Of a DNA stretch of 64,000 bases, positions 13,906 through 55,264 are shown piece after piece. The number at the start of each line of letters is the position of its first letter. The stretch's first letter is position 1. Position numbers and translations under genes: made by a program. The notes beneath the pieces were generated by a model that saw nothing but the letters and a program-made list of their open reading frames with translations, searched no databases and was not told the DNA's origin. This DNA comes from a virus: positions 746 to 64,745 of IMG/VR virus record IMGVR_UViG_3300045988_162375; one strand, given 5' to 3'.

Positions 13906-14641
13906 ATTCTTTCTGAATAATAGAAATATTGCTATATGTATTCTTCTGAATACTGTAGTGATATTTCTGTTGTCCTTTCATCGATTCCAACATGTCCTTT
14001 TGCCACTAGATGTGGCGTTTACCATATTCTTTATAATAGAGATGATTGTCAAGATTAGATGTCTTGGTAAATTATTCTTTAAGGATAAAGAATGTGTTTT
14101 TGATTTATTAATTGTTGTAGTTTCATCAATCCCATTATTTGGGTTATTCAGTTTAGATTGGATTCAAGTAATGCGATTGACTCGAATATTTAAGAGTCTT
14201 CGATTGTTTGAATTGATTCCTAATTACAAAAAGCTACTCATCAATTTTAGGTTAGTAATTCGAAGTTGCATTGGAATCTTAGTAGGATTATCTATTTTGA
14301 TTTTTCTATTATCAATTATTCTGTCTTCTTTATATGGAAATATAGTTCCAGAGTATTTTGGAAATCCCCTTGAAAGTATTTATTCAGTTTTCCGATTGTT
14401 TTCTATTGAGGGTTGGTATGATATTCCAAATGCTATTGCTGAGCGTAGTTCCTATGTAATGGGATATTTATCTAAGTTTTTCTTATCAGGTATAGTTCTT
14501 GTTTTTGGTATATTCGGAATGGGATTTGTATCATCTATGTTTATTGATGAGGTAACTTCAGATAATAATGATGAAGTTCTACAACGATTAAGTAAGTTAG
14601 AAGAAATTTTAAAGAAAATACAAGAAAATGGCACAACTTAA
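13856..14641 (+). CDS. 6TM voltage-gated cation channel (BacNaV/NaChBac-like) with C-terminal coiled coil
   Basis: Six hydrophobic segments; S4-like helix with basic residues every third position (MRLTRIFKSLRLFEL); pore-like FRLFSIEGWYD resembling the TLESW filter; start may be a later ATG. Confidence 0.5.
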   Translation: MVTKPLPSPSTISGVSKFFLNNRNIAICILLNTVVIFLLSFHRFQHVLLPLDVAFTIFFIIEMIVKIRCLGKLFFKDKECVFDLLIVVVSSIPLFGLFSLDWIQVMRLTRIFKSLRLFELIPNYKKLLINFRLVIRSCIGILVGLSILIFLLSIILSSLYGNIVPEYFGNPLESIYSVFRLFSIEGWYDIPNAIAERSSYVMGYLSKFFLSGIVLVFGIFGMGFVSSMFIDEVTSDNNDEVLQRLSKLEEILKKIQENGTT

Positions 14642-16154: not shown

Positions 16155-16155
16155 T

Positions 16156-16992
16156 ATGCAGTTGTTCAAAATGGGTGGGACGATTACCCATAAACAAGCA
16201 TTGGCAACAGGTATCATAGGAGCAATAGTTCTGCTGCTTCTATGGTATCTAGTTACCATGTCAGGGGAAATCATTCGTCCTCAGATTTTACCGAATCCTA
16301 TAAATGTGCTCAAGGCATATCCAGATTTAATCTCTAACTCAGCCCTCTTTACCAATACTTGGTATACAGTAAAGCTGAACCTTATGGGATATTTCTATGC
16401 TTTAATCATTGCAATCCCTTTGGGCCTTATTATAGGATTGTTTCCTGTCACAAAAGCGTTGTTTGGTAAGTACTTTGATGCTCTTCGGTATCTTCCTATT
16501 CCTGCAGTGTCTGGTATTTTTATCGCAGCTATTGGCATAGGATTTGATATGAAGGCTAGTTTTCTTGCTTTCGGAATCATCATATACATTCTTCCTGTTG
16601 TTGTTCAACGAGTATCTGAACTTCAGAATCCCGCCAACGATAAGGATTATGTGTATTTACAAACCATTTCAACGTTAGGTGCAACAAACTGGCAGAAATT
16701 TCGATATGTTTATTTTCCTTATGTGATGCAGCGAGTTTCAACCGATGTAATCAATTTAACTGCGATTTCCTATACTTATATAGTAATTGCAGAAACTCTT
16801 AATAAAGAGGGTGGTATCGGTGCACTGATAAATATAATGAGTAGGCAGTCGAGAACTGCAGAAGTTTATGCACTTCTCTTCTTAATTATCGGTATTGGAA
16901 TACTCCAAGATGTCCTTCTAAAGAAATTGGATGTTGTACTTTTTCCTTCAAAGTACAACAAACCATCCATCAAATCCAAAATAATGAAATAA
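16156..16992 (+). CDS. ABC transporter permease (TauC/SsuC-like)
   Basis: 278 aa polytopic membrane protein immediately following the SBP gene. Confidence 0.6.
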   Translation: MQLFKMGGTITHKQALATGIIGAIVLLLLWYLVTMSGEIIRPQILPNPINVLKAYPDLISNSALFTNTWYTVKLNLMGYFYALIIAIPLGLIIGLFPVTKALFGKYFDALRYLPIPAVSGIFIAAIGIGFDMKASFLAFGIIIYILPVVVQRVSELQNPANDKDYVYLQTISTLGATNWQKFRYVYFPYVMQRVSTDVINLTAISYTYIVIAETLNKEGGIGALINIMSRQSRTAEVYALLFLIIGIGILQDVLLKKLDVVLFPSKYNKPSIKSKIMK

Positions 16993-16994
16993 GT

Positions 16995-17831
16995 ATGGGG
17001 CTCTTTGATGGTTTAACTGGATCCGTTCCAGTTCCCACATCTCGTTATGAGGCCGTGGATGTAATTAACTTAAGAAATCTTAACCAGTCTTTTGATACTC
17101 CTAAAGGAAAGTTCACTCTCTTTAAGGATTTCAGTCTGGATATAAAAGACTTCTCAGGAGAAGGGCAGTTTATCAGTATCTTAGGAAAGAGTGGTTGTGG
17201 TAAATCTCAACTGCTCAAAATCATCTCTGGGCTTACACAGCCAGATTCAGGTGAAGTTCTTGTCTATGGAAAGCCACAGACAGGAAAAATCCCTATGGTA
17301 TTTCAGCAGTATTCTTCATTTCCATGGATGTCAGTTCTTGACAATGTAAAACTTCCGCTTATTCTTCGAGGAGTTTCTGATAAAGAAGCTACAGAGAGGG
17401 CTATGGAAATGATCAAAATTGTAGGTCTGGAAGGTAATGAAACTAAATGGGGTCAGTATCCTGTGTTATCGGGAGGACAGCTTCAACGAGTTTCAATGGC
17501 GCGAGCCCTGGTTGCAGATAACAAAATTCTTTTGTTAGATGAAGCCACTGGTGCATTAGATATTGTTATGAAACGAGAGATTCAGAACACCATTTTGGAT
17601 ATCTATTATAACGCCAAATTCGATCCTACAATCCTCAATGTTACACATAGCATTGAGGAGGCTGTATATCTCTCAAATCGAATTTACATTTTAGCTCCTA
17701 ATCCCTGTAAAGTTCAGGCTGTCATTGATGTTAACTTTGACGGTAGGAGAACGGATGCAATTCGTCAAACTACAGCATTTGCAAATTATGTGAAACAAGT
17801 AGAACAAGTAATGTCAGAAACACATGAGTAA
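16995..17831 (+). CDS. ABC transporter ATP-binding protein
   Basis: Walker A GKSGCGKS, signature LSGGQLQRV, Walker B ILLLDEATGALD. Confidence 0.7.
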   Translation: MGLFDGLTGSVPVPTSRYEAVDVINLRNLNQSFDTPKGKFTLFKDFSLDIKDFSGEGQFISILGKSGCGKSQLLKIISGLTQPDSGEVLVYGKPQTGKIPMVFQQYSSFPWMSVLDNVKLPLILRGVSDKEATERAMEMIKIVGLEGNETKWGQYPVLSGGQLQRVSMARALVADNKILLLDEATGALDIVMKREIQNTILDIYYNAKFDPTILNVTHSIEEAVYLSNRIYILAPNPCKVQAVIDVNFDGRRTDAIRQTTAFANYVKQVEQVMSETHE

Positions 17832-31196: not shown

Positions 31197-32810
31197 ATGA
31201 CTCTATTTATCATTCTCGGTGCAGCACTACTGTTAGTGTTGCTCTCAGTAGTGGGAATTCTCTCACGGTACAGAAAATGTCCTTCTGACAAGATTCTTGT
31301 AATCTTTGGTAAGACAGGGGGCGAAAAATCTGCTAAGTGCATTCATGGAGGAGCAGCTTTCGTGGTACCTATCGTACAGGGTTACAGTTTCATGTCACTT
31401 AAACCTTTGCAGTTTGAGTGTAATCTTCAGAAAGCTCTGTCTTCACAGAATATCCGAGTAGATGTTCCAACTACTGTGACTGTAGGTATTTCTACAGAAC
31501 CTGAAGTAATGCAAATGGCTGCAGAGCGATTGCTTGGATTGACTACTGACCAGATTGAAGATCTCGTTAAGGATATTGTATATGGTCAGATGCGTCTAAT
31601 TGTGTCTAATATGACCATTGAAGAGCTGAACTCTGAACGAGACAAGTTCCTGGAAGAAGTGAAGAATGTTGTTGGTGGAGAGCTTCGTAAGATTGGCCTG
31701 CATCTTATCAACGTCAATATCACTGATATCAGGGATGAGGCAGGTTATATCATCGCATTAGGTCAGAAGGACAAAGCAATTGCTCTTAATAAGGCAAATG
31801 TTGAAATCGCTAAGGCTGAAAAGGACGGTGCAACTCAAACTGCAGAGCAGAACAAAATTAAGAACTCTGAAGTTGCTGTAACCCAACGTGAGGAAGCAGT
31901 TGCGGTCGCAGTGGCAAATGCCGAGCGAGATTCCAAGGTTGCAGAAACTCAGCGTACTCGTGATATCAATGTGGCAACTGCTAAAGCAGAAGGTGAGATT
32001 GGTAAAATCGAAGCTGAGAAGACTGTAACAAACAAGAATGCTGAGTTGGAAGTTGTGCGAGCAGATGCTGAAAAGGCTGCAAACACAGCTCGTGTAAAAG
32101 CAGAAGCTGAAGTCGCTAAGGAGAAAGAGCTTGCTCAAGTAGAAGTTGTTAAGGCTGAAGCAAAAGTGCTGCAAGAGCAAGAACTCGCTCAGAAGACTGC
32201 AGAAGAAGCTCGTGCTCAGCGTCAAGAAGCAGCCTTACATGCTGATAAGATTGTACCTGCAGAAATTTCTAAGAAAGAGAGTCTGCTGCGTGCTGAAGCT
32301 TATCAGCTGGAACAGGAGAAAATCGCAGAAACTAATGCTAATAAGACTAAAATCGAAGCTGATGGTAAAGCGCAAGCTGAAGCTCTCAAGGGTGAAGGTG
32401 AGGCTAAAGCCATTACTGCTAAAGGTCTTGCTGAAGCAGAGGTTGTTCGTCAGAAAGGTTTGGCTCAGGCAGAAGCAGAGAAAGCTTCTCTTAAGGCTCA
32501 GGCAGATGGTTTCCGTGAGATGATCGAAGCTGCCAAAACTGATCCTGCGATTGCAATTCAGTTCAAGATGGTTCAAGAAGGAACCTACGAAAACATTGCT
32601 AAGCAACAGGTTGAGGCTTACAAGCACATGAACTTCGGTAATGTGACCATCATGGACACTACGAAGGGTGGAGGCCTCACAAATGTGATGCAAAGCCTTC
32701 TGTCTCAAGTATCCCCCATGCTGAATGTTATGAAAGAAATGAAAATTCCTGGAGTATCAAAGGCATTGGAAGAGAAAACTGAGGATGCTAAATTTCCTGA
32801 AGTTAAGTAA
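31197..32810 (+). CDS. SPFH/band-7 (flotillin-like) protein with long Ala/Glu/Lys-rich coiled coil
   Basis: 537 aa; N-terminal TM, SPFH-like region, ~250-aa EA-repeat coiled coil (AEAEVAKEKELAQVEVVKAEAK...). Confidence 0.6.
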   Translation: MTLFIILGAALLLVLLSVVGILSRYRKCPSDKILVIFGKTGGEKSAKCIHGGAAFVVPIVQGYSFMSLKPLQFECNLQKALSSQNIRVDVPTTVTVGISTEPEVMQMAAERLLGLTTDQIEDLVKDIVYGQMRLIVSNMTIEELNSERDKFLEEVKNVVGGELRKIGLHLINVNITDIRDEAGYIIALGQKDKAIALNKANVEIAKAEKDGATQTAEQNKIKNSEVAVTQREEAVAVAVANAERDSKVAETQRTRDINVATAKAEGEIGKIEAEKTVTNKNAELEVVRADAEKAANTARVKAEAEVAKEKELAQVEVVKAEAKVLQEQELAQKTAEEARAQRQEAALHADKIVPAEISKKESLLRAEAYQLEQEKIAETNANKTKIEADGKAQAEALKGEGEAKAITAKGLAEAEVVRQKGLAQAEAEKASLKAQADGFREMIEAAKTDPAIAIQFKMVQEGTYENIAKQQVEAYKHMNFGNVTIMDTTKGGGLTNVMQSLLSQVSPMLNVMKEMKIPGVSKALEEKTEDAKFPEVK

Positions 32811-32854: not shown

Positions 32855-32940
32855 CCCGACGCGGCTACGATGGTGGAGTGGCGCAGCACTGTAAATGCTG
32901 TACATCAGAAACTCATGAGGTTCGAATCCTCACGGCGGGA
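32855..32940 (+). tRNA. tRNA-Tyr(GTA), type II
   Basis: Anticodon arm CAGCA-CTGTAAA-TGCTG, 15-nt variable arm, T arm TGAGG-TTCGAAT-CCTCA, A73. Confidence 0.65.
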
Positions 32941-32956
32941 CTAATTTATATTGACA

Positions 32957-33426
32957 TGAAAATTGTAGATAATTTTATATTCTTCTGGGGAGGTTGGTTA
33001 AGTAACTTTCATCCTTGTAGAATAGTATTTGGCTCTAAAGTTTTTAAATCATCTGAACAGCTTTTTATGTATCTTAAAGCTTTGCATTTTGGTGATATAG
33101 AAACAGCAGAGAGGATTCTATTAGCAGAGACTCCAAAGGAAGCTAAAACCCTTGGTAGGGAGGTTAGAAACTTTGATGAAAAATCCTGGAATGAGGTTAA
33201 GATTCAGAAAATGTATCTTGCCTTGGAAGGTAAATTTAGCCAAAATAAAGATTTAATGGATAAACTTAAAGACCCAGCATTAAATGGGAAATTCTTTGTT
33301 GAAGCATCCCCCTTTGATAGAGTCTGGGGTATAGGCTATGATCAAGATCATGCACTTCAAAACCAATCAAATTGGGGAGAAAATCTACTTGGTAAGACTC
33401 TTACCTTTTACAGAGGATCTTTATAA
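32957..33426 (+). CDS. NADAR (YbiA-like) domain protein
   Basis: FFWGGWLSNFHPC...FKSSEQLFMYLKALHFGD...PKEAKTLGREV...ASPFDRVWGIGY match NADAR family conserved blocks; track start 32878 overlaps tRNA-Tyr, so start moved to ATG ~32957. Confidence 0.6.
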
Positions 33427-33433
33427 ACAATTT

Positions 33434-33470
33434 GCGGATATTGACATCGCTCAATATCCGCTTTATTTTT
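33434..33470 (+). terminator. Rho-independent terminator
   Basis: GCGGATATTGA-CATCGC-TCAATATCCGC followed by TTTATTTTT. Confidence 0.55.
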
Positions 33471-33483
33471 AAAACTTAATAAG

Positions 33484-35175
33484 ATGTTTGAAGCAAAAAA
33501 GAAAACATTATTTGCTGTTGATAGCAGTAAATCGGCATCTAAATCAGCCTTTATTCAGGCAGGATTAAAAACTGCAGCAGAAACCACTACAGGTAACGGT
33601 GGTAAAGCCTATTCCAGTACAGGGGATCCCTTCGTTGACCAGTTTGGTAGTACATCTAAGTACAGAGAGATTCGCCCATTTGCAGAAATTGCAAAAGATT
33701 GTGAAATTCTCTGGGCAGAAAATAAAGAAGATACTGTTAAATTTATCTTTTTCTTGCGAATGATTTGTCGTAAGATTAATGATAAAGAGTATGGTACCAA
33801 AGAAGCACAGAAGGGTTCTGAACTTCGTCATGAAGGTATTATGCGTCTCATCTGGCTGCATATCAAAGATAAAGAAGTGTTCTGGAAGAATGCTTGGTTG
33901 ATTCCCTTAGTGGGTTCTTGGAAAGATCTCTTCGTTATGCTTCGTTATGACTTAGTTTATAACGGCTGGGAACACCGAGTTCTGGATTGGCGCCGTTTTG
34001 CAGATCTGATTACTGCTGGCCTTAGTTCTGATTCCCAAACGAATCTTCTTCGTAAGTATCTTCCTCAGATCAAGGCACATTCCAAGTGTACTACAGTAGA
34101 GGCACAAGCAAATTGTATGATTGCAAAATGGCTGTGTTCAGAACTTTACGGTGCGTCAGGAGCAAAGACAGATGCTGAAAAGTATCAGGTATATCGTTCT
34201 TATGCAAAGATGAAAGCCGCAGGGACAGCACATAGCTGGCAACAGCTTATTTCAAAGCAACGATATACAGAGATTGACTTTGATAAGATTCATGGTCGTG
34301 CCTTAAACCTTCTTGTACACTCCAAGTTCTTAGAGAATCATAATCTCAAAGAGAAGTATCAGGAATGGATAGGAGCTCCAGAGACAAAGAAGGTGAAGTA
34401 CACAGGTTTTGTACATGAGCTCTTTAAACCTATTTGTAACACTGCTCCTTATAATATAGAGCAGCATATCAAAGATACTATTAATAAGCAGTTTATGACT
34501 CTTGTTAATAAGTGTAAGGAAGAGGGCAATACTACAGATCTAATTGTAGTACGTGATACTTCTGGTTCAATGGGTGCAGAAGCAACTGGAACTTCCATGT
34601 CTTGTTACAATGTAGGTAAGGCAATTGCTCTGTATTTCTCTTACTTCTTGAGAGGAAGGTTTCAAAATGCATGGATTGAGTTCAACTCGAAAGCTATGAT
34701 GCATGAGTGGAAAGGAGAAACTCCTCTGGAAAAATGGTTTAATGACCATTCAGGGTACTATGGAAGTACAAACTTTGAGGGTGTTATTAACCTCTTTACT
34801 CAGTTGAAACTTGAAGGTGTTCCAGAAGAGGAATTTCCTAAAGGAATTCTTTGTATCAGTGATTGTGAGTTTGATGCTTCAAGTCTGAATAAGACTTCAG
34901 TTGAAAGAGTTCATGATACATTGACAGCTGCAGGATTTTCTAAAGAGTATGTTGATAATTTTGTCATTTGCCTTTGGAATTTGAGAAATGATTACTACGG
35001 ACATAATGTACAAAATCGTGTTCCATTCCAAACTTATGGTGACGTCAAGAATGTCTACTATATGTCTGGATATTCAGCACAGATTGTATCTTTCTTAAAT
35101 GGGAAGGTGCAGACTACACGGGATCTGTTTGATGAGGCTATGAATCAAGAGATTCTGTCTCTCATTAAGATGTAA
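33484..35175 (+). CDS. vWA-domain protein with N-terminal helical domain (Ro60/TROVE-like or DUF2828-like architecture)
   Basis: 563 aa; C-terminal MIDAS-type motif LIVVRDTSGSMGAEATG; large N-terminal alpha-rich domain. Confidence 0.45.
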   Translation: MFEAKKKTLFAVDSSKSASKSAFIQAGLKTAAETTTGNGGKAYSSTGDPFVDQFGSTSKYREIRPFAEIAKDCEILWAENKEDTVKFIFFLRMICRKINDKEYGTKEAQKGSELRHEGIMRLIWLHIKDKEVFWKNAWLIPLVGSWKDLFVMLRYDLVYNGWEHRVLDWRRFADLITAGLSSDSQTNLLRKYLPQIKAHSKCTTVEAQANCMIAKWLCSELYGASGAKTDAEKYQVYRSYAKMKAAGTAHSWQQLISKQRYTEIDFDKIHGRALNLLVHSKFLENHNLKEKYQEWIGAPETKKVKYTGFVHELFKPICNTAPYNIEQHIKDTINKQFMTLVNKCKEEGNTTDLIVVRDTSGSMGAEATGTSMSCYNVGKAIALYFSYFLRGRFQNAWIEFNSKAMMHEWKGETPLEKWFNDHSGYYGSTNFEGVINLFTQLKLEGVPEEEFPKGILCISDCEFDASSLNKTSVERVHDTLTAAGFSKEYVDNFVICLWNLRNDYYGHNVQNRVPFQTYGDVKNVYYMSGYSAQIVSFLNGKVQTTRDLFDEAMNQEILSLIKM

Positions 35176-35183
35176 ACTTAATA

Positions 35184-35215
35184 GGCTCTAGTAGAAATAC
35201 TAGAGCCTTTTTATT
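35184..35215 (+). terminator. Rho-independent terminator
   Basis: GGCTCTAGTA-GAAA-TACTAGAGCC followed by TTTTTATT. Confidence 0.55.
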
Positions 35216-35645
35216 AATAATCTAATTATGGGTAAGTACCTTAAAGATTATCAAATTCCTGATTATTGCGAGGAGGATAAACCTAGAATGCCAAAGCGGC
35301 CTAAGAAGTTTAAAGACCAAGAGGGAGGAAAACCTTTAGTAAAGAAAAAGTTCAAGCGATGAAGAGATGATTCTTAAGAGTATTTAGAAGGTTTAATGAA
35401 CCATCAACTGATAGTTCAAAAGAATTTCCTAAAAAAGTAATTGACTTAGAACAATTTGACGATGTATTCATAGTTACTAATAAAAAAGTATATAAGGCCT
35501 GGGTTATGAAAAGAACCAGTAGACTTTTACAGATTTTTATTTGGGAGTCTAAAAAGGAGGTAATTATAAATACAATTGGACAAGCTAATTCTAGTGTTAT
35601 TCCTTTTGGCAAGGATAGCTATTTAATTATAAATAAAAAAGATAT

Positions 35646-36227
35646 ATGCGATTACTTGTAGTAGTTGATATGCAAGAAGACTTCATCAGAGGTGCATTAA
35701 CGGTTCCTGGTGCTGAAGAAATAATTTCTCCTATAGAGAAATTAGTTAAAGAGTATATAACAGCAGATGATGCTGTCCTTTTTACTCGGGATACTCATTA
35801 TGAGCATAGTGATACTAGGGGATTCAGCTATGCTATGACTCGTGAAGGTAGAAATCTTCCAATTCTTCATTGCGTTTGTGGAACTGAAGGTCATAAGCTT
35901 ATTAAGGAATTTAAGCCTTATCTTCGTTCCTGCTATGTAATGGATAAACTAAATAGGTTTGGATTTATCCAGGATGAGTTTAATGATGCCAAGATAGATG
36001 ATGGAGAATATTTATTCGACATCGCTGATTGCATTACAGAAATTACTTTGGTTGGTGTAGTAACTAATCTTTGTGTTATTTCATGTGCTGTAAGTTTTCA
36101 GCAAATATTCCCTGATGCAGATATCATCATAGATGCTTCCTGCTGTCGTTCCAATAACAATGAACTTCATAACAAAGCTTTAGATGTTATGGAGGGTTTA
36201 CAAATGACTATAATTAATCGTTATTAA
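35646..36227 (+). CDS. pncA: nicotinamidase / isochorismatase-family cysteine hydrolase (PncA-like)
   Basis: N-terminal LLVVVDMQEDF (catalytic Asp), TNLCVISC (catalytic Cys), 193 aa. Confidence 0.55.
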   Translation: MRLLVVVDMQEDFIRGALTVPGAEEIISPIEKLVKEYITADDAVLFTRDTHYEHSDTRGFSYAMTREGRNLPILHCVCGTEGHKLIKEFKPYLRSCYVMDKLNRFGFIQDEFNDAKIDDGEYLFDIADCITEITLVGVVTNLCVISCAVSFQQIFPDADIIIDASCCRSNNNELHNKALDVMEGLQMTIINRY

Positions 36228-36228
36228 T

Positions 36229-37713
36229 ATGTTTAAACCTTGTGGAGCTCTACTGACTGATTTTTATAAGCAGGATCACCAGCGTCAATATGACCCTAGC
36301 ATCACTAAGGTAGTTTCTTACTATGTACCTCGTAAAACTAGGATTCCTGAATTTGATAAGGTAGTAGTTTTTGGTATTCAAGCATTTATTGAGGAGTATC
36401 TGATTGAGTACATGAATGAAACTTTCTTTAACCGTCCCTTAGAAGAAGTTATTGCAGAATATGAATTTGTGATTTCTTCTACTATGGGAGCAGACCGTGT
36501 TAACTCGGATAAAATTAAAAACCTTCATGAATTAGGATATCTTCCTATCGAAATTTGGGCACTTCCTGAGGGATATAAAGTAGGAATGAATATCCCCTGT
36601 ATCGAGATTTCTAATACTAATCCAGAATTTGCATGGTGTACTAATTTCATTGAAACCTTGATGCTCTCTGAGCTTTGGTATCCAATGTGTGTTGCAACTG
36701 CTGTAACTAAATATCGTAGTATCGTAAATGATTTTTATTCTAAAACTTCTGATATTTCTGGTCGTTCTGCTATTTCTGAGTTCGGATTTAGAAGTTTAGT
36801 TGGACTTCATGGTGCTATTAAAGCTTCGTGTGGATTTTTGCTCTCTTTTAATAAGACTGCGACTATTCCTGGCATTATGTATGCTTCAAAGTATTATCAT
36901 ACCCCAATGTCTGTAGTAGGTGGAGGTATGGCTTCTACTGAGCACTCCGTAATGTGTAGTTCTGCTGCCATTGATGGGGATGAAAAAGTTATGATTCGAC
37001 GCCTCCTTACTGAGGTCTATCCTAATGGATCATTCTCTATGGTAAGTGATTCCTATGATTACTGGAATGTTGTCGATGAGATTCTCCCATCTCTTAAGGA
37101 AGAAATTCTCAGTAGAAATGGTACTTTGTATGTTCGTGGTGACTCTGGAGATCCTGTAGAAATTGTAACTGAGACGGTTTTTTCTCTTTGGGAGACTTTT
37201 GGAGGCACTGTCAACTCTAAGGGATATAAAGTCTTAGACCCTCATGTTCGAGCTTTATATGGTGATGGCATCACTCAGTTACGTGCAAAACAGATTTATC
37301 AGATTTTGTATGATAAAGGATTCTCTGCAGAGAATGTTGCACTTGGTGCAGGAGGATTTTCCATGCTTTCTTACATGGATGAGTTTGGGAATGTAGATAT
37401 GTTCTCTCGCGATACATTTAATGTAGCAATTAAATGCAGCTATGTAGAACAAACCATTGATGGAAAAACTAAATCTATCATGGTCTACAAAGATCCTAAA
37501 ACGGATTCAGGAATGAAGAAATCCCACAAAGGATGTTGTGCTGTTTTCTACAACCATGTAACTGGTGAGTTTGATTGTGATGAAGGTATGACACTGAAAG
37601 AAGCTCATAATGAGCCTTTCAATTTACTTCGTCCTATCTTTTCAGATGGAAAAATGAGAGAGCAAACTACTCTCACAGAAATTCGTAGAACTCTTTGGAA
37701 CGGGAAATTCTAA
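36229..37713 (+). CDS. NAMPT/NAPRT-family phosphoribosyltransferase (NadV or PncB, or Namat-like)
   Basis: 494 aa; N-terminal LLTDFYKQDHQRQYDP characteristic of the nicotinamide/nicotinate PRTase family. Confidence 0.55.
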   Translation: MFKPCGALLTDFYKQDHQRQYDPSITKVVSYYVPRKTRIPEFDKVVVFGIQAFIEEYLIEYMNETFFNRPLEEVIAEYEFVISSTMGADRVNSDKIKNLHELGYLPIEIWALPEGYKVGMNIPCIEISNTNPEFAWCTNFIETLMLSELWYPMCVATAVTKYRSIVNDFYSKTSDISGRSAISEFGFRSLVGLHGAIKASCGFLLSFNKTATIPGIMYASKYYHTPMSVVGGGMASTEHSVMCSSAAIDGDEKVMIRRLLTEVYPNGSFSMVSDSYDYWNVVDEILPSLKEEILSRNGTLYVRGDSGDPVEIVTETVFSLWETFGGTVNSKGYKVLDPHVRALYGDGITQLRAKQIYQILYDKGFSAENVALGAGGFSMLSYMDEFGNVDMFSRDTFNVAIKCSYVEQTIDGKTKSIMVYKDPKTDSGMKKSHKGCCAVFYNHVTGEFDCDEGMTLKEAHNEPFNLLRPIFSDGKMREQTTLTEIRRTLWNGKF

Positions 37714-38483
37714 TGAAAGAAGTATATGAAGGAATAGTTTCCTTTCTTAAGAATTATCAAGAACGTACCCATGTGAAAGGGTATGTTCTTGGTATTTCTG
37801 GAGGAAAGGATTCTACTGTAGTGGCCAAATTATTGGTAGATTCTATAGGTAAGGAAAATGTATTAGGTGTGCTAATGCCTAATGGTAAGCAAGCTGATAT
37901 TGAGGATAGTTATACAGTATGTGACTTTCTTGATATTAACTATACTGTTGTTAATATAGAAAATGCGTTTGATGAACTTATTCATCAAATTGATGTTTCG
38001 AAAATAACTACAGTGGAAGGGAATGAAGAAAACATTCCAGTAACGGAAAAGGCTCTTACTAATGTTCCTCCTCGTATTCGTATGACTATTCTATATACTA
38101 TAGCTCAGTCTGTAGGATATCGAGTAGCGGGGACTAGTAATGCTTCAGAATTATTTATTGGTTGGGGAACTAAATGGGGAGATTTGGCATCTGATATTAA
38201 TCCTATTTCTCAATTAACATGTTCTGAAGTTATTTCTTTAGGAGACTATATGGGACTCCCATATGATCTTATACATAAGACTCCTGCAGATGGATTAACA
38301 GGAAAGTCTGATGAAGAAAATTTTGGTTTTACATATAAAGAACTTGACACTCTTATTGTAAAGCAGCGAAATCTTACTTGCACAGGTAGAATACAATGTG
38401 CTTTTACTGAACAAGAATTAAAAATCTTAAAATTACATGAAGCTGCGTATCACAAAGATCATGTAATTAAAATACATTATTAA
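37695..38483 (+). CDS. nadE: NH3-dependent NAD+ synthetase (NadE-like PP-loop ATP pyrophosphatase)
   Basis: PP-loop YVLGISGGKDSTVVAKLL; 262 aa. Confidence 0.6.
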   Translation: MEREILMKEVYEGIVSFLKNYQERTHVKGYVLGISGGKDSTVVAKLLVDSIGKENVLGVLMPNGKQADIEDSYTVCDFLDINYTVVNIENAFDELIHQIDVSKITTVEGNEENIPVTEKALTNVPPRIRMTILYTIAQSVGYRVAGTSNASELFIGWGTKWGDLASDINPISQLTCSEVISLGDYMGLPYDLIHKTPADGLTGKSDEENFGFTYKELDTLIVKQRNLTCTGRIQCAFTEQELKILKLHEAAYHKDHVIKIHY

Positions 38484-38484
38484 T

Positions 38485-39375
38485 ATGGGAAGCGGATCAT
38501 GGAGTTCTAACACATATAAAGCTTTTGCTGATAGCTATACTAAAAAATCCAGAGAAGAAATCTTTCATCAAAGATCTCTACACGAAGAAATGGATCTTAC
38601 AAAAAGTAAGACGCATATTCGAGAATCTAGAGATTCTGAGGAACACCCAGAATCTCTTCCAGTTTTCATTGCATTAGATGAAACTGGTTCAATGGGCTCA
38701 ATTCCTGATAAGATGATCAGGGATTATCTTCCGAAGTTAATGGATTCTATTATTGATTCTATTGGAGTTAAACACCCTCAAATTCTTTTTATGGGAGTAG
38801 GAGATCATGAATGTGATTACTGCCCGTGTCAGGTAGGTCAATTCGAATCTTCAACTGTTGCAATTAATCAATGTCTCTCTAAAATCTATTTGGAGGGTCG
38901 TGGTGGAGGTAATAGTGGAGAATCCTACTTACTTCCTTGGATTATTGCAGGAAATCACACGTCAATTGATAGCTGGGAAAAGCGAAAGCAAAAAGGATTC
39001 CTTTTTACAGTTGGTGATGAACCTACTTTGACAAGAATAAGTAGGGGAACTTTGGCATCCCTCACTGGAATGGAGTATGAGCGTGATTATACCTGGCAGG
39101 AGGCTTATGAACTTGCCTGTGAGAAATATCATGTGTTTCATATCCATGTTCGACATGGAAGTGAACATTATGATGAGGTAGTAGCTAAACAAATGAAAGA
39201 AATTCTTAGAGAAAACTTTATTGTGTGTAAACCTGATGAAGTTGTAGAAGCCATTTGTGAAGCTATGGGTAAAACTCTAAAAGGTAGCTCTTCAGTAATT
39301 GAAGAGGTTTCTGCAGAAAAAACTGTAGAAAATACAGAATCAAAACCTAATATATTTGACATACATCGACGATAA
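38485..39375 (+). CDS. hypothetical protein, possible vWA-like fold
   Basis: 296 aa; motif VFIALDETGSMGS resembles a MIDAS variant. Confidence 0.3.
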   Translation: MGSGSWSSNTYKAFADSYTKKSREEIFHQRSLHEEMDLTKSKTHIRESRDSEEHPESLPVFIALDETGSMGSIPDKMIRDYLPKLMDSIIDSIGVKHPQILFMGVGDHECDYCPCQVGQFESSTVAINQCLSKIYLEGRGGGNSGESYLLPWIIAGNHTSIDSWEKRKQKGFLFTVGDEPTLTRISRGTLASLTGMEYERDYTWQEAYELACEKYHVFHIHVRHGSEHYDEVVAKQMKEILRENFIVCKPDEVVEAICEAMGKTLKGSSSVIEEVSAEKTVENTESKPNIFDIHRR

Positions 39376-40469
39376 TGTATAATATTGTAGTGGGTTGTAC
39401 GTTTGGCGACGAGGGTAAGGGTCAAGTGACTCATGCCCTTTGTTGCGACGCTAAAAGAAAGCGTTTAAAACCTCTGGTTGTTAGATTTTCTGGAGGGCAT
39501 CAAGCAGGGCACACAGTAACTACTTCATCTGGAACAATGCATATATTTTCTTGCTTTGGATCTGGAACATTTGCTGAAGCACCTACCTATTGGATGAAGC
39601 AATGTGTTATGGATCCACTACAATGGATGCGGGAACGAGAGGAGTTGGATTTCTTAGGATGTAATATCCCTATCCAATATTTTGATCCATATGTACAAGT
39701 AACAACTCCTTTTGACGTAATGCTGAATTCTGAAAGGAGTAAAGGTTTTACAGTAGGAAAAGGGATATGGGAGACTGTTCAGAGACAAAGAGAAGGACTA
39801 GCTTTATATGTAAAAGATTTAGCTTTTCCTCAAGTTGTAAAAATGAAGCTCCGATTAATTAGAGAATGGGCGGAAGATAGACTCCAGTTTAAGGAAACTT
39901 ATTCAAGATTTGCTCATGTTTTCGATAACTTAGATTCTTTAGTACATACTTATTGTAAGATTTTTTATCCCAATATAGTATTGGAGGATACGTTATCTAA
40001 ATTAGCATGGAAAGAAAAGACTTCTGTGATATTTGAGGGTTCTCAAGGAGTACTTTTGGACCCTAATATTGGATTTTCACATGAATATACTACCCCACTT
40101 CCATGTTGTCCATCGTGGGACAATCTCCCATTCTTTTTAAGTGATGATCAACTAATATTTAATTTTGTATATAGATCTTATTTAACAAGACATGGTAAAG
40201 GGCCTGTTGGAGGTTCTATATTCAAGGAGATTAATAATCCTTATGAAACAAATTTAAATAATCCTTTTCAAGGGGAATTTCAAACTTATGAATTCAATAA
40301 GGAATTAGTCTTGTATGGAATTGATCATGTTAAATCACACTTTAATCCTGAATATAAGGTAAGGTTGATTGAAACATGTTGTGACATATGTGCAGGACAT
40401 GACTTAGGAATCCCTTATAATTACTCTATCAAAACCTGCAAAAAGAATTTTGACTCTGTATGCAAATAA
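39375..40469 (+). CDS. Adenylosuccinate synthetase homolog, short form (PurA-like, or possibly PurZ-like)
   Basis: N-terminal VGCTFGDEGKGQV and VVRFSGGHQAGHTV match the PurA P-loop/GDP-binding signatures; 364 aa, shorter than bacterial PurA (~430 aa). Confidence 0.55.
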   Translation: MYNIVVGCTFGDEGKGQVTHALCCDAKRKRLKPLVVRFSGGHQAGHTVTTSSGTMHIFSCFGSGTFAEAPTYWMKQCVMDPLQWMREREELDFLGCNIPIQYFDPYVQVTTPFDVMLNSERSKGFTVGKGIWETVQRQREGLALYVKDLAFPQVVKMKLRLIREWAEDRLQFKETYSRFAHVFDNLDSLVHTYCKIFYPNIVLEDTLSKLAWKEKTSVIFEGSQGVLLDPNIGFSHEYTTPLPCCPSWDNLPFFLSDDQLIFNFVYRSYLTRHGKGPVGGSIFKEINNPYETNLNNPFQGEFQTYEFNKELVLYGIDHVKSHFNPEYKVRLIETCCDICAGHDLGIPYNYSIKTCKKNFDSVCK

Positions 40470-41281
40470 TTAACTTTTTATACCCAGAAAAGTCAGAAAT
40501 AAAGTATCGAATTGATACTTATCCTGATTCTCAATCTCATCTTGTACTTGAGTCTGAAATGGATAGACGAAAGTCTTTGTCGATATATACTAGACTGTCC
40601 AATTTGAATGATATTTGGATCCTAATGCAATTAGCTGATATTTGTCATCGTCAAGGTATCCAGATTTCCTTTTTACGAATAGCTTATTTATTTGCAGCAC
40701 GAACTGATAGATTATTTTCTTTTAACGAAGCATTAGATTTGGAGCTTGTTAAAAAATGTCTTATCTTTGTACAAGCAGATCAAATTCTAATATTAGATCT
40801 TCATTCTAATCGTTTAATTGTAGAAGGAATAGGTGATAATGATTGGCCTACATTTTTTACCTTAAACCCAGGTTTTAATATTCCAGAGAGTATTTTATTC
40901 CCTGATGAAGGCGCTTATCATCGTTACAGTGAGCTTTTAGACTTTAATATAAAATATCGTACTACAACGTATGTTGCTACAAAGCATAGGATCTCAAGGG
41001 ATAAGTTAGAGGTAAAATTACCTTCTGAAATAAAGCCAAATACTTCTATTCTAGTTTTTGATGATTTATGTGATGGTGGGGGAACTTTCTTTGCAATTCA
41101 TAAAGCATTACAAGATATGGGAGTAACTGATGTGCATTTACGTGTTACGCATGCTATCCAAAAAGAACCTTTAGTAAAGTTATCAAAACTTTACAAAACA
41201 ATAACAATTACCAATTCTTATAAGGATTGGGATAAAGAAGAACTTCCAAACAATATAAAAGTAATAAGAGTTTATGAATAA
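40460..41281 (+). CDS. Ribose-phosphate pyrophosphokinase (Prs) family protein; possibly an ADPR-PP synthetase-like enzyme
   Basis: Prs motifs LRIAYLFAARTDR (cf. PYFGYARQDR), DLHS, LFPDEGA, ILVFDDLCDGGGT (PRPP-binding loop). Confidence 0.55.
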   Translation: MQIINFLYPEKSEIKYRIDTYPDSQSHLVLESEMDRRKSLSIYTRLSNLNDIWILMQLADICHRQGIQISFLRIAYLFAARTDRLFSFNEALDLELVKKCLIFVQADQILILDLHSNRLIVEGIGDNDWPTFFTLNPGFNIPESILFPDEGAYHRYSELLDFNIKYRTTTYVATKHRISRDKLEVKLPSEIKPNTSILVFDDLCDGGGTFFAIHKALQDMGVTDVHLRVTHAIQKEPLVKLSKLYKTITITNSYKDWDKEELPNNIKVIRVYE

Positions 41282-41624
41282 ATTTAATGAAATTCTGAGT
41301 GCTACTGGAACTGCGGTACTCAAGAAACGTGCTGAAATCATCAATGCTGATGCCCGCGAAGCAGCTAAGGATCAGGTTAATCTCATTGAGAAAGAGATTC
41401 GTCAGATTAAGTCCAAGATTATGAATCTGGAGGATCTGTCGATTAAATCGACCGAATCACTGGTTGTAGGTACGGATTTTAAGGCAGATGAGTGGGTAAC
41501 TCAGATGTTCAAGCTTCGTGATGACTTGCGCAACGCTGAAATCTGTCTGGAAATTGCTCAGAATATTTATAATGAGTATTTCACGGAACTTCCTGAAGTA
41601 GACTGTGATAAGAAAGCAGAATAG
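41274..41624 (+). CDS. hypothetical coiled-coil protein
   Basis: 116 aa. Confidence 0.3.
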   Translation: MNKFNEILSATGTAVLKKRAEIINADAREAAKDQVNLIEKEIRQIKSKIMNLEDLSIKSTESLVVGTDFKADEWVTQMFKLRDDLRNAEICLEIAQNIYNEYFTELPEVDCDKKAE

Positions 41625-41631
41625 CTTCATA

Positions 41632-41652
41632 GGCGGATTTACTCCGCCTTTT
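41632..41652 (+). terminator. Rho-independent terminator-like hairpin
   Basis: GGCGGA-TTTAC-TCCGCC followed by TTTTAA. Confidence 0.45.
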
Positions 41653-41654
41653 AA

Positions 41655-41728
41655 GGGCCCTTAGCTCAATTGAATAGAGCATCTGACTACGAATTAGAAG
41701 GTTACAGGTTTGAGTCCTGTAGGGCCCA
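41655..41728 (+). tRNA. tRNA-Arg(ACG)
   Basis: Acceptor GGGCCCT/AGGGCCC, D arm TAGCTCAATTGAATAGAGC, anticodon loop CTACGAA, T arm ACAGG-TTTGAGT-CCTGT. Confidence 0.75.
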
Positions 41729-41924
41729 CATATGAAAACTGTTTTATATAGAATACAATCAATTGAAGCCCCAGAAAATGAAGGGTTTCGGTATGGCTCA
41801 TTAAGAACACTATCTAAGACAAAGGTAGATGAAGAAATGTGCTTAAGGAATGAGTTTGGAAGTCATTATCTAATTAATGTTCCAGATTATTGAATTTGTG
41901 AGATTTTAAAAGAAATAGAAGAAG

Positions 41925-42986
41925 ATGATGTATAGTTTAGATGAAATAGGTATTTTACCTAGTTCAAAAGCCACGGATATTACAAGTCGTAGTGAGTGTA
42001 GTCCTTTAGGAGACTTAGGAACATATCCTATTTTTGTTTCTCCTATGACATCCGTTATTGATGAATCAAATTATCAACTTTTTACAAAGGCTGATGTGCT
42101 TCCAATTATTCCAAGACGTGTAGATAATTTACAGTTTAGACTTAATGCATGTAACCATGTTTGGTGTGCATTTAGTTTAAAGGAATTTGAAACATTCTTT
42201 TGTGAAGGAGAACCTTCTGATGAGTGTCCTCTGGTACTTATTGATATGGCTAATGGCCACATGAAGAAAATTTATGACCTGGTTAAGAAGGCTAAGGAAA
42301 AGTGGAGCACGATTATTATCATGGTAGGTAATATAGCTCATCCAGATCTTTATTGGGAATGCTATGATGCAGGGGTGGACTATGTTCGTGTAGGTATTGG
42401 AACTGGCAGTGTATGTACTACAGGAGTAAAAACTGGAGTACATGCTTCTATGGAATGGCTATTGCAACAATTAGTTAAGCGTCGATCCATGATTAAAGAG
42501 TCTCCTAAACCTAAAAAGGCTCCAAAGATTATCGCAGATGGAGGAATTTCTACAATAGATCGAGCTATAAAGTGTTTAGCTTTGGGCGCCGATTATGTAA
42601 TGATGGGTAAAATGTTTGCTCAATGTAACGAAGCTTGTGGGTATGTTAGAACAAAGTGGCCAGATGATAATGATACTATACTTAAATATTTTGCATCTTT
42701 AACTAAAGCAGAAAGTGATCGAATCATTGAAGTGTATCCTAAAGAGCGATTATACTACGGAATGGCAAGTGAACGTGGTCAAAAGGATATTTCAAACACT
42801 AAAAAGGCCGAAGAAGGAATTGAAATTTGGGTTCCTGTTGAATATACTCTTGAATCTTTACTTTCTCAATTTGATTCTGCATTAAGGTCTGCTATGTCTT
42901 ATACAGGATGTAGGACTCTTGAAGAATTCAAAAATGTAAAATGGGAGTATATGTCTCCCTCTGAAAGAAATGCTTATTACAAATAA
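41925..42986 (+). CDS. GMP reductase / IMP dehydrogenase-family enzyme (GuaC-like)
   Basis: 353 aa TIM-barrel; catalytic-Cys loop VGIGTGSVCTTGVKTG and C-terminal KIIADGGISTIDRAIKCLALGADYVMMGKMFA match the IMPDH/GMPR family. Confidence 0.55.
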   Translation: MMYSLDEIGILPSSKATDITSRSECSPLGDLGTYPIFVSPMTSVIDESNYQLFTKADVLPIIPRRVDNLQFRLNACNHVWCAFSLKEFETFFCEGEPSDECPLVLIDMANGHMKKIYDLVKKAKEKWSTIIIMVGNIAHPDLYWECYDAGVDYVRVGIGTGSVCTTGVKTGVHASMEWLLQQLVKRRSMIKESPKPKKAPKIIADGGISTIDRAIKCLALGADYVMMGKMFAQCNEACGYVRTKWPDDNDTILKYFASLTKAESDRIIEVYPKERLYYGMASERGQKDISNTKKAEEGIEIWVPVEYTLESLLSQFDSALRSAMSYTGCRTLEEFKNVKWEYMSPSERNAYYK

Positions 42987-44504: not shown

Positions 44505-44936
44505 ATGAAAACACTTCTTTGGGTAGATGATGCTCGTAATCCAATGGAAGATGATTGGATGAATTTTAGTCCAATTGGTAGAAATTGTAAAGTTGTATGG
44601 GCTCAATCTTACCAAGAAGCGATTGATTTTCTTGAGAAAGAATGGCCTGATGCAATTTGTCTAGATCATGATTTAGGGGAAGAGAAATCTGGATATGATA
44701 TAGCTAAGTATATTGTGGATCGGTGTATTGATGAGGATAAAAAACTTCCTGAGTTTGCTAGTCAGTCTGCTAATCCTGTTGGAAGGGAAAATATTATTAC
44801 ATTATTGAGCAATTATAAGAGACATGAACTTCTAGATCATATTCAAAAAGTTATTGATTATAAACATGATTGGCGGAAAGCAGTACAAGAAGGAAAAAGT
44901 TTGCCAAAATGGAATGGAAAAATTAAAGTCAATTAA
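44505..44936 (+). CDS. hypothetical protein with receiver (CheY-like)-type N-terminal pattern
   Basis: LLWVDDARNP ... ICLDHDLG pattern; 143 aa. Confidence 0.3.
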   Translation: MKTLLWVDDARNPMEDDWMNFSPIGRNCKVVWAQSYQEAIDFLEKEWPDAICLDHDLGEEKSGYDIAKYIVDRCIDEDKKLPEFASQSANPVGRENIITLLSNYKRHELLDHIQKVIDYKHDWRKAVQEGKSLPKWNGKIKVN

Positions 44937-45281: not shown

Positions 45282-45662
45282 ATGTTCTTTCTTAATTTAG
45301 CTGTATTAATTTTTTGTGGAGCAGTTCTTGGATATGAGAGACAAAAAACTAACAAGGTAATTGGAATTCGTTCCGTTGTTCTACTGATGTTAGGATCTTT
45401 TATATTTACATATATCTCTACAAGAATAGGTGGAGATCCTTCTAGAGTAGCTGCCCAGATAGCTTCTGGAGTTGGCTTTATTGGTGCTGGAATCATTTGG
45501 AAGGATAAATCTACCAATATAGCTAACTTAACAACAGCAATTCTCATTTGGGTTATTGCAGCTTTAGGAAGCATGATTTCTATTGGATTACTTGCTGAAG
45601 CAGTAGTAATAACAGGAGTAATTTACATTGTCCTTAGATTTAATTTTTTGAAGGACGTCTAA
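45282..45662 (+). CDS. mgtC: MgtC/SapB-family membrane protein (N-terminal domain only)
   Basis: GYERQKTNKVIGIRSVVLL, AAQIASGVGFIGAGII, LTTAILIWVIAALG are conserved MgtC-family blocks; 126 aa. Confidence 0.55.
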   Translation: MFFLNLAVLIFCGAVLGYERQKTNKVIGIRSVVLLMLGSFIFTYISTRIGGDPSRVAAQIASGVGFIGAGIIWKDKSTNIANLTTAILIWVIAALGSMISIGLLAEAVVITGVIYIVLRFNFLKDV

Positions 45663-53958: not shown

Positions 53959-54534
53959 ATGAAATTAAAAACTGAGGCACAGGAATCAACAGAGAAATTA
54001 GATATTAAGAGAAGGAAGTGTACTTTATCTGAGAATATTCAAAAACTTTTACTGCGGCAATTAAAACACGAGCTGTATAATCATAACCTCTATATGAGTT
54101 TTTCTAACTTTTATGGAGTGCAAGGATTAGCTGTTCTGGAACAGTATTATAAAGAACGTGCAGATGAGGAATATCATCATCATTCATGGATTCGTACATA
54201 TATGAATGAGAATGATGCAGCATATATTTACCCTGATATTCCTGCCATTAGTGAAACTTTTGAAGATAATGTAACGCCATTTAAGTTAACTGTAGATAAG
54301 GAGATTCAAACAACTCAACTTATTTATGAAATTGTGGATGCAGCTCTTGAAGAGGGGGACTGGGCCACTTTTAATTGGCTAAATGGAGATAACGATGAAA
54401 CTGGACGACTTGTTCAAGAACAAGTTGAAGAAGAATCAATCTCACGTACTGCTCTAGATATTGCTATGGAGGAAGGTTCTTGGCTTCGTAAGGAGAAATC
54501 CATTATGAATGCTTATAAAGGAGATGTTGATTAA
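53959..54534 (+). CDS. hypothetical acidic protein
   Basis: 191-aa ORF. Confidence 0.35.
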   Translation: MKLKTEAQESTEKLDIKRRKCTLSENIQKLLLRQLKHELYNHNLYMSFSNFYGVQGLAVLEQYYKERADEEYHHHSWIRTYMNENDAAYIYPDIPAISETFEDNVTPFKLTVDKEIQTTQLIYEIVDAALEEGDWATFNWLNGDNDETGRLVQEQVEEESISRTALDIAMEEGSWLRKEKSIMNAYKGDVD

Positions 54535-55264
54535 GTTACCCGAAGACATTAATGATCTATATTTCTGTGGTGATATTCATGGTAATTTAGATTATTTAAA
54601 GTATTTTATAAATACAGGAGTTGGATTCCCACAAAAGATATTTAACTCCTGTATTGTTTTATGTGGAGATGTAGGATTAGGATTTTCTCCTGATCTTGAA
54701 AGTATGAAGATCTCTTTCTTAAATAAGCTCTGCGAAAAAACTAATAATTATATTATCGCCATAAGAGGGAATCATGATGATCCTCAACAGTTTAAAAACC
54801 TTTATAACAAGAGATTCAAAGCGGTTGAAGATTATTCTGTAATTCAATATAAAGATAAAAATATCTTGTGTATTGGAGGTGGAACTTCTATAGATAGAAT
54901 CTATAGAAAAAATAACAAATGGGGATATTGGGAAGATGAAAAGATTGTTGAGTTGGATAATTTTGATTCAATTCCATATTGTCAAATTATCGCATCCCAT
55001 TGTGCTCCTACCTGTGCATACCCTTATGGAATAGGAAAGTTAGTAATGGAATTCTGTGATGGAGATGATTCATTACTGGAAGAATTACTTTGGGAGAGAA
55101 ATTATCTTCAAACTTGCTACGAAGAAATGTCTAAAAAAGGACCAGTAGAAGATTGGTATTATGGGCATTACCATAGTACTATGGATACTACTGTAGATAA
55201 TACGAGGTTTCATTTACTTGGTATTAATTACCTTTCTAGATATTGTTATAATGATTACAATTAA
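54509..55264 (+). CDS. calcineurin-like metallophosphoesterase
   Basis: LYFCGDIHGN, VLCGDVG, IRGNHDD motifs. Confidence 0.55.
   Translation: MLIKEMLIKLPEDINDLYFCGDIHGNLDYLKYFINTGVGFPQKIFNSCIVLCGDVGLGFSPDLESMKISFLNKLCEKTNNYIIAIRGNHDDPQQFKNLYNKRFKAVEDYSVIQYKDKNILCIGGGTSIDRIYRKNNKWGYWEDEKIVELDNFDSIPYCQIIASHCAPTCAYPYGIGKLVMEFCDGDDSLLEELLWERNYLQTCYEEMSKKGPVEDWYYGHYHSTMDTTVDNTRFHLLGINYLSRYCYNDYN

Follow-up and report, generated by a model that had tools for sequence, protein, structure and literature searches.

The closest described relatives of the enzyme considered here are the adenylosuccinate synthetases (AdSS, PurA) and the phage-encoded PurZ/PurZ0 enzymes (phiVC8, S-2L and Gordonia phage Archimedes; model NF038379), which use dGMP as substrate and travel with DatZ, MazZ and DpoZ. 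In a 2026 survey, Asp13 was found in 99% of the PurA clade, whereas Ser occupied the position in 100% of 147 phage PurZ/PurZ0 sequences (PMC12884076), and the S14D substitution in phiVC8 PurZ was reported to abolish selectivity (bioRxiv 2025.10.22.683976). Despite their low identity, PurA and PurZ have in common a TT..RR aspartate loop, of which residues T273–T276 and R280 are reported to contact aspartate in S-2L PurZ (PMC8342488). Here, another phage-encoded member of this superfamily is characterized, found at positions 39375–40469 of a 64,000-nt stretch (the window) comprising positions 746 to 64,745 of the IMG/VR virus record IMGVR_UViG_3300045988_162375. Judged by its sequence, this PurA-like protein is a member of a distinct family linked to a vWA-domain partner, neither PurZ nor canonical PurA, and its gene is part of a conserved cassette whose function is unassigned.

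Other described systems resemble the surroundings of this cassette. Iyer et al. (2022, PMC9503650) described systems of ADP-ribosylglycohydrolases (ARG) regulated by NrtR or WYL proteins and containing vWA 'chaperones', Macro and NADAR domains; NrtR regulators sense ADP-ribose. More recently, a survey of 2025 (PMC12522546) reported that a DarT-like ADP-ribosyltransferase (ART) family (Lmac_3114) has an AdSS-domain gene nearby in 60% of cases; in P. aeruginosa, AAA and NUDIX genes are found alongside. The survey also classed DUF4291 as ART-like. The bacterial versions of the present cassette likewise adjoin genes for NrtR-type Nudix, NADAR, Macro, ARG, Tpt1 and DUF4291 proteins, but the main text of PMC9503650 does not mention any PurA-like enzyme, and the likeness to the ART- and NUDIX-associated AdSS genes of PMC12522546 stands at the level of the AdSS domain. 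A literature search for the vWA/PurA-like pairing returned only the latter, loosely related report. The pair itself, its third component, the sequence signature of the family and its abundance in phages are in neither paper.

In the window, four open reading frames (ORFs) follow one another on the plus strand from 38485 to 41624 with successive overlaps of 1, 10 and 8 nt, and therefore constitute one translationally coupled unit. The first (38485–39375) encodes a vWA/MIDAS-domain protein of 296 aa (PHROG 2971, no Pfam family), and its last base is the first base of the ATG of the PurA-like gene (39375–40469; 364 aa, PF00709). These are followed by a gene for a Prs-like (ribose-phosphate pyrophosphokinase-like) protein of 273 aa (40460–41281; PHROG 619) and by one for a small helical protein of 116 aa (41274–41624). 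A plus-strand tRNA-Arg (ACG) detected by ARAGORN (41655–41729) and a gap of about 200 nt set the unit apart from a GuaC-like gene (41925–42986, plus strand; 353 aa, PF00478), which codes for a divergent TIM barrel of the GMP reductase type; a promoter and terminator scan of the cassette-to-GuaC interval gave the same counts as shuffled sequences. The first-pass annotation, made from the letters alone, had singled out 39375–42986 as a purine-pool remodelling locus. Its coordinates for the PurA-like and GuaC-like genes are exact, and its assignment of the two products to the PurA superfamily (PF00709) and the GuaC/IMPDH family (PF00478) was right. Within that interval, the Prs-like ORF, the 116-aa ORF and the tRNA-Arg were nevertheless missed, and the vWA gene abutting the PurA-like start was overlooked.

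The vWA gene is an obligate neighbour of the PurA-like gene. Of 83 viral loci, 80 from IMG/VR and three from the cultured phages phiKT1024, Bread and RHph_Y65, which together form 52 lineages at 70% identity, 82 have a vWA gene as the immediate upstream neighbour of the PurA-like gene and in the same orientation; the sole exception begins at a contig end. For example, the Vibrio phage phiKT1024, the Mycobacterium phage Bread and the Rhizobium phage RHph_Y65 all carry a vWA homolog directly upstream (E 1e-31 to 2e-58). Of the 80 bacterial loci examined, at least 71 showed the same arrangement. Pfam and PDB profile searches with the vWA protein gave nothing significant, its fold being recognized by predicted structure only, and a MIDAS-like D-x-T-x-S motif is present. 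There are 4670 database homologs of this partner and, among the matches listed, none had a Pfam family and the only name was 'hypothetical protein'. Even though the partners are only about 45% identical overall, their N-terminal Met1-Gly2-x-Gly4(-Ser) is invariant or nearly so. This Met-Gly-x-Gly start resembles a processed N-terminal glycine signal.

The third gene of the cassette occurs in two forms. The type-A gene encodes a helical protein of about 115 aa, with homologs beside the vWA gene in 49 of the 83 viral and 21 of the 80 bacterial loci, and is usually placed directly upstream of the vWA gene in other phages and in bacteria; in the window lineage, it lies downstream of the PurA-like gene, behind the inserted Prs-like gene, and is represented by the 116-aa ORF. 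No Pfam, PADLOC or PHROG family matched this small protein, and the PADLOC defence models left the PurA-like, vWA and small proteins unmatched. The type-B gene, likewise a neighbour of the vWA gene, encodes a protein of about 295 aa in which a J-domain, marked by its HPD motif, is combined with a kinase-like domain that lacks catalytic residues in several members. Homology between the two types was considered and rejected (hhalign probability 0.3). The conserved unit is a cassette of a small helical or J-domain/kinase-like protein, a vWA/MIDAS protein and a PurA-like enzyme, with no function assigned to it. The family is large; 4512 representatives of a library clustered at 50% identity matched its profile at E <= 1e-30, some of them possibly canonical PurA. 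No fusion of the PurA-like domain was found in the top 150 representatives, all of them single-domain proteins of 346–463 aa; a few apparent fusions of PF18127 or PF02540 with PF00709 were dismissed as short chimeric gene calls from neighbouring genes.

Several cassettes are interrupted or flanked by further genes. In the related loci L027 (7241–7981), L076 (7009–7914), L091 (7127–7996) and L041, GIY-YIG/NUMOD homing endonuclease genes are inserted exactly at the junction of the vWA gene and the PurA-like gene. The type-B cassettes of the IMG/VR phage loci L025 (53–4996) and L027 (5069–11674) are flanked by genes for HAD_SAK_2 (a 'Swiss Army Knife' HAD of RNA repair), R2K-clade ATP-grasp and ATP-dependent DNA/RNA ligase proteins, a setting that may connect them with modules for RNA repair or protein modification. 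In L123 (8253–8627) and L124 (49–423), an HNH endonuclease gene is found immediately upstream of an isolated cassette on a bacterial contig of about 1 Mb, a neighbour consistent with a mobile cassette.

The sequence of the PurA-like protein combines a preserved catalytic core with a partly rebuilt substrate site. The Pfam Adenylsucc_synt profile (PF00709) matched it with 100.9 bits over profile positions 1–281 of 416 only. In hhalign, the family aligned with E. coli PurA with a probability of 99.8 (E 4e-30, 299 columns), and the fold is common to both: the AF2 model (pLDDT 90) had bacterial and plant PurA as best Foldseek matches (E ~1e-19), bacterial PurA ranking first, with TM of about 0.65–0.7 for bacterial PurA. 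The motifs in common with PurA include GDEGKG, GGHxAGHT with the catalytic His, EGxQGxLLD with the 6-oxopurine Gln, TRxGxGP, and the guanine-specifying Asp, located in a G4-like T-C-x-D motif. As counted in 116 aligned homologs, the catalytic and GTP residues Asp13, Lys16, His41, Gln224 and Asp333 are family-invariant (D12, K15, H46, Q224 and D337 in the window protein) and Leu228 and Thr271-Arg272 are also kept; Asp13, His41 and Gln224 are invariant across thousands of family sequences. The residues for GTP, phosphotransfer and the 6-oxopurine were retained, while most of the IMP 5′-phosphate ligands, which in PurA are Asn38, Thr129, Thr239 and, contributed by the other subunit, Arg143, were changed. 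The substitutions recorded in the family comprise N38Q (111 of 116), T129 to V or C (115), R131 to V, L or K, V273H (all 116) and K331C (114). R143 is not conserved, and at positions 239–240 T239 is kept in 101 members and S240R is found in 86, the window protein itself having YTT there.

The former aspartate loop differs most clearly from that of the described enzymes. It reads EFGATTGRRRR in E. coli PurA, EYTTVTKLPRR in S-2L PurZ and ELTTVTKKVRR in phiVC8 PurZ, whereas the window protein has NNPFQGEFQTY. In the vWA-linked family, the TT..RR loop is missing, and the ATTGRRRR stretch of PurA is replaced by a shorter N-x-[FYW]-Q-G-x-F, with the Gln in 115 of 116 members; hhalign left E. coli A299–T301 and R303 unmatched, indicating a shortened loop. 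From the Honzatko and Fromm literature, we take R131 and R303–R305 to be the aspartate-site arginines of E. coli PurA. The residues that distinguish the family, which in the window protein are Q43, H273, Q299-G300 and T334-C335-x-D337, are each invariant or at least 90% conserved. In addition, the C-terminus is shorter than that of PurA and the protein is always paired with a vWA partner. The PurA equivalog models aligned with only the N-terminal ~286 residues of the window protein and gave about one fifth of the family cut-off (NF002223, 81.5 bits against 402; TIGR00184, 64.9 against 395.55). These scores, together with the missing aspartate loop and the altered IMP 5′-phosphate ligands, ruled out a canonical PurA.

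The genomic context of the cassette is related to NAD+ and ADP-ribose. It was found on bacterial contigs of about 1 Mb and in the genomes of 80 species, with carriers including Chryseobacterium, Flavobacterium, Chitinophaga, Nocardia, Streptomyces, Streptosporangium, Rhodococcus, Massilia and Methylobacterium. A gene for a Nudix protein with an NrtR winged helix was tightly linked to it in 51 of the 80 bacterial loci. In 27 of these, it precedes the cassette in the same orientation, some of the genes overlapping by 4 nt; in 12 it is upstream but divergently oriented, and in the other 12 it lies downstream or overlaps. In Flavobacteriia, NADAR directly follows the PurA-like gene, and Macro, DUF4291, ADP-ribosylglycohydrolase, metallophosphoesterase, Tpt1 and NAMPT genes are also present in these loci. 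Among phages, the lineages L020, L024 and L075 have NAMPT, Prs, NadE or NADAR genes beside the cassette. In the window, the cassette follows a contiguous NAD/ADP-ribose island (32878–38483, all genes on the plus strand), recognized by Pfam, PHROG and NCBIfam matches, which encodes NADAR (32878–33426), a DUF7788/DUF2828 (TROVE-like) protein (33484–35175), an isochorismatase/nicotinamidase-like protein (35646–36227), a NAMPT-like protein (36229–37713; NF006629, 438 bits against a cut-off of 405) and NadE (37695–38483). An Endonuclease_7 gene sits between the nicotinamidase-like and NAMPT genes in the close relatives L002 and L003.

The Prs-like gene enclosed by the window cassette may belong to the same context. 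Its product matched PHROG 619 at 1.6e-37 and TIGR01251 with 55 bits against a cut-off of 113, and the phage 'Prs' family to which it belongs was detected by tblastn in 638 phage records, with the best matches in crAss-like and Lak phages. Members of this phage family have been described as Adps, which together with the NAMPT-like Namat reconstitutes NAD+ in the NARP1 pathway; NARP1 Adps has a PRPS-like fold without the C-terminal regulatory helices and a catalytic Lys (Lys185 in ICP1 Adps). A NAMPT-like gene lies 2.7 kb upstream of the Prs-like ORF and, by analogy, the Prs-like protein is a plausible candidate for its Adps-type partner in NAD+ reconstitution. The island and the Prs-like gene together look like a NARP1-type set (Adps and Namat) to which enzymes of the deamidated route were added.

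The GuaC-like gene is a different case. Its product matched PF00478 (IMPDH/GMPR) with 135.9 bits, and its best NCBIfam model was the GMP reductase NF003966, where its 120.7 bits fall short of the cut-off of 344 (TIGR01306, 101.7 against 465.65). In an alignment with E. coli GuaC and GuaB, Cys164-x-Thr166 and Glu297-Gly298 were conserved, the CBS insert was absent, the flap was short (GMASERGQKD, compared with ...SSDRYF... in GuaB), and the Arg-Tyr dyad of IMP dehydrogenase (IMPDH) was absent. It therefore resembles E. coli GuaC in its CBS-less TIM barrel, the Cys-Thr of GIGxGSVCTT, the Glu-Gly pair and the short flap, and departs from it in its identity of only 27%, in the phosphate motif GxxxAG, which has become GKMFAQ, and in an insertion at residues ~240–270. 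From these features, the protein is most likely a divergent GMP reductase (GMPR), and it is probably functional. Homologs were found in 67 of 50,697 phage records, mainly from crAss-like, Lak and other very large metagenomic phages. A GuaC/IMPDH gene was present within 8 kb of the PurA-like gene in 2 of the 52 lineages, the window's own and that of L032–L034, where in L032 it lies 414 bp downstream of the PurA-like gene; the latter loci also agree with the window in gene order farther out (Band_7, DUF7788) and are therefore not an independent case. Conversely, the relatives of the GuaC-like gene in seven other viral contigs had no PurA-like, vWA, Prs or NAMPT neighbours. A role of GuaC as a conserved partner was thus rejected from both sides, that is, from the PurA-like loci and from the GuaC-like loci, and the gene is a separate accessory of the relatives of the window phage, outside the conserved unit.

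Taken together, these observations lead us to favour, with modest confidence, a reaction in which a 6-oxopurine nucleotide is activated with GTP and then handed to a nucleophile that is not free aspartate, as part of a process linked to NAD and ADP-ribose. The PurA-like enzyme would be the catalytic component of the cassette, using GTP to phosphorylate the 6-oxo group of an IMP-like purine nucleotide, and the activated purine would be passed to an acceptor other than free L-aspartate, candidates being ammonia, another amine or the vWA partner, so that the reaction may take place together with, or on, this partner. The GuaC-like enzyme may feed IMP locally. E. coli AdSS accepts hydroxylamine instead of aspartate. 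The linkage to NrtR and ADP-ribose genes in bacteria and the NAD-salvage island of the window point therefore to a role of the cassette in NAD+/ADP-ribose-linked nucleotide metabolism or in phage–host conflict, rather than in bulk AMP synthesis or Z-DNA. A more far-reaching version, which we regard as tentative and rather doubtful, is that the cassette constitutes a new ADP-ribose-responsive, NrtR-controlled nucleotide-ligase system with a novel reaction, common to bacteria and large phages and used by the latter as a counter to immunity. In such a system, 6-phosphoryl-IMP may be aminated to AMP in one step independently of aspartate, with ammonia from GuaC, or the activated purine nucleotide may be attached to an amine of the vWA partner, with its invariant Met-Gly-x-Gly start; phages may thereby resist host defences that act by NAD+ destruction or by deamination of adenine nucleotides.

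Some points weigh against the activation and transfer proposed here. The proposed substrate and nucleophile are putative, as is the part played by the vWA protein, and the argument on the aspartate loop comes from sequence and profile alignments, so that the site may instead have been remodelled for aspartate. The window protein itself is off the family consensus, with YTT for VTR at 238–240, FQ for FR in the loop and a shortened C-terminus. The NrtR profile behind the 51 linked bacterial loci may also catch plain Nudix hydrolases, and NAD/ADP-ribose neighbours in phages are limited to a minority of about 3–5 of the 52 lineages. Moreover, the presence of GuaC nearby in two distantly related lineages fits an IMP-consuming role in the purine pool.

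This last point belongs to the reading given most weight in the first-pass annotation, in which a divergent but working adenylosuccinate synthetase acts with the GuaC-like enzyme and host PurB to convert guanylate (GMP) into adenylate (AMP) for an AT-rich phage genome. In its favour, the enzyme retains Asp, His, Gln and Lys of the catalytic site as well as the Asp that specifies GTP, the 6-oxopurine and phosphotransfer residues being among those kept, and the GuaC-like protein shows Cys-Thr and Glu of the GMPR type without the IMPDH dyad, so that a link to purines may still exist. The two genes are only 1.5 kb apart (414 bp in the distant relative L032), and the window is AT-rich, although its GC content is ~31–42%, and ~33–36% around these genes, instead of the 30% that had been stated. 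However, the aspartate loop that such a synthetase would need is absent, three of the four arginines presumed to bind aspartate are replaced, and the equivalog score is that far below its cut-off. The invariant partner is a vWA protein, dispensable for AMP synthesis, whereas GuaC accompanies the enzyme in only the two lineages mentioned and elsewhere has relatives without a PurA-like neighbour. In addition, the bacterial carriers are expected to own purA, and their cassettes adjoin NrtR and ADP-ribose genes. Conversion of guanylate to adenylate by this locus is, on balance, unlikely. The same vWA association can also be read as the mark of a regulatory protein: PurA is a P-loop protein of the GTPase fold, vWA and J-domain proteins are typical peptide-binding and co-chaperone modules, the type-B kinase-like domain is devoid of catalytic residues in several members, and Aravind and colleagues predicted vWA 'chaperones' in NrtR-regulated ADP-ribose systems (PMC9503650). 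The PurA-like protein would then be mainly a sensor GTPase or a nucleotide-binding scaffold for its vWA and J-domain partners rather than a biosynthetic ligase, and may, for instance, sense nucleotides of the IMP or GTP type within a conflict system that responds to ADP-ribose. The invariance of Asp13, His41 and Gln224, which serve purine chemistry only, would be unusual for a pure switch and makes this a quite improbable account.

The remaining explanation is that the enzyme is a PurZ or PurZ0 producing the 2-aminoadenine (Z) precursor from dGMP, in a phage with Z-DNA, as the same annotation had suggested as an alternative. The protein is short (364 aa), as are the PurZ/PurZ0 enzymes, PHROG 1211, in which they are likewise found, bears a PurZ-derived label, and a Phe precedes the P-loop Gly as in phiVC8 PurZ. 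Nevertheless, when the pocket was aligned with both enzyme types, the P-loop of the window protein read GDEGKG, with the catalytic Asp13 where phiVC8 and S-2L PurZ have Ser; this Asp was present in 114 of the 116 homologs, the other 2 being gapped, and contrasts with the universal Ser of PurZ/PurZ0. The PurZ model NF038379 gave 26.9 bits against a cut-off of 300, over residues 3–69 only, and hhalign of the family with S-2L PurZ reached a probability of 85 over 102 columns. In phmmer against PDB, 15 PurA sequences and no PurZ were matched at E<=0.001. Among the Foldseek matches of the AF2 model, PurZ0 ranked 25 and PurZ appeared from rank 32 on, at 13% identity; no members of the fold are more remote than the PurZ structures, and identity to the PurZ/PurZ0 structures as a whole is 13–16%. 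The aspartate loop, needed by PurZ, is absent. It was also verified that the Z-cluster is missing from the 64-kb window, which covers part of a genome of ~176 kb: tblastn with DatZ, MazZ, DpoZ and PurZ of phiVC8 and S-2L gave a best E of 0.48, and HD, MazG and PolA domains were absent from the ~40 window ORFs scanned with Pfam, so the earlier statement that MazZ and DatZ are not seen in the window holds. Z-cluster partners recurred in none of the 83 related loci. Finally, the window protein matched 238 phage records (Mycobacterium 202, Rhizobium 10, Vibrio 6) and phiVC8 PurZ matched 204 (Arthrobacter 105, Vibrio 38, Microbacterium 18, Acinetobacter 10), largely different host profiles. PurZ/PurZ0 identity was thus ruled out by Asp13, the model score, and the profile and fold rankings, and the production of Z nucleotides by this enzyme is hardly credible.

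Because the evidence for PurZ is negative, the label '2-aminooxy adenylosuccinate synthetase' given to these proteins by PHROG and RefSeq is misleading. Under PHROG 1211 and RefSeq-style annotation, such proteins are listed as PurZ in phage records by the hundred, among them those of cluster C mycobacteriophages and of phages of Rhizobium and Vibrio, an annotation that the present findings correct. Since the catalytic Asp is present and Z-cluster genes are absent, we argue that the mislabelled phages make no Z-DNA by means of the PurA-like enzyme. The cassette is a very common one without an assigned function, present in phages by the thousand and in numerous bacteria, and harbored by cultured phages and by cultured bacteria such as Chryseobacterium, Flavobacterium, Nocardia, Streptomyces and Rhodococcus. 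Its links to NrtR, ADP-ribose processing and NAD salvage set it in the NAD+/ADP-ribose arms race of phages and bacteria, and tractable carriers exist in the cluster C phages of M. smegmatis, the Vibrio phage phiKT1024 and Flavobacteriia.

The source phage, of ~176 kb, is known only from metagenomes, and a megablast search of INPHARED revealed no near-identical relatives of the window. The exact PurA-like protein was indexed in 195 blocks of an assembly collection, of which 24 contigs were read, with contigs of up to ~176–177 kb, and its 90% cluster comprises 368 member sequences. ARAGORN detected 24 tRNA genes in the window, spanning 8742–49602. Several of them measure 83–92 nt without being Leu or Ser tRNAs (Pro 92, Lys 88, Tyr 87, Arg 86, Asn 85, Thr 83), and the call at 11572–11645 has a 2-base anticodon, features that may reflect introns or unusual structures. 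At 13856–17831, the window carries an unusual phage cargo, composed of an Ion_trans channel-like protein and, after it, all parts of an ABC importer, in which the permease and the ATPase are joined by a substrate-binding domain of the NMT1 type fused to OmpA. A large SPFH/Band_7 protein precedes NADAR/DUF7788 both in the window (31197–32810) and in L032 (2266–4593), whose PurA-like proteins share 37% identity, a placement that suggests a larger conserved syntenic block. Downstream of the GuaC-like gene, at a short distance, a cREC_REC (cyclic-phosphate-processing receiver) protein (44505–44936) and an MgtC-like membrane protein (45282–45662) are encoded and kept in relatives. At 53959–55264, a ferritin-like protein gene adjoins one for a calcineurin-like metallophosphoesterase, and metallophosphoesterase genes are also found near the bacterial cassettes.

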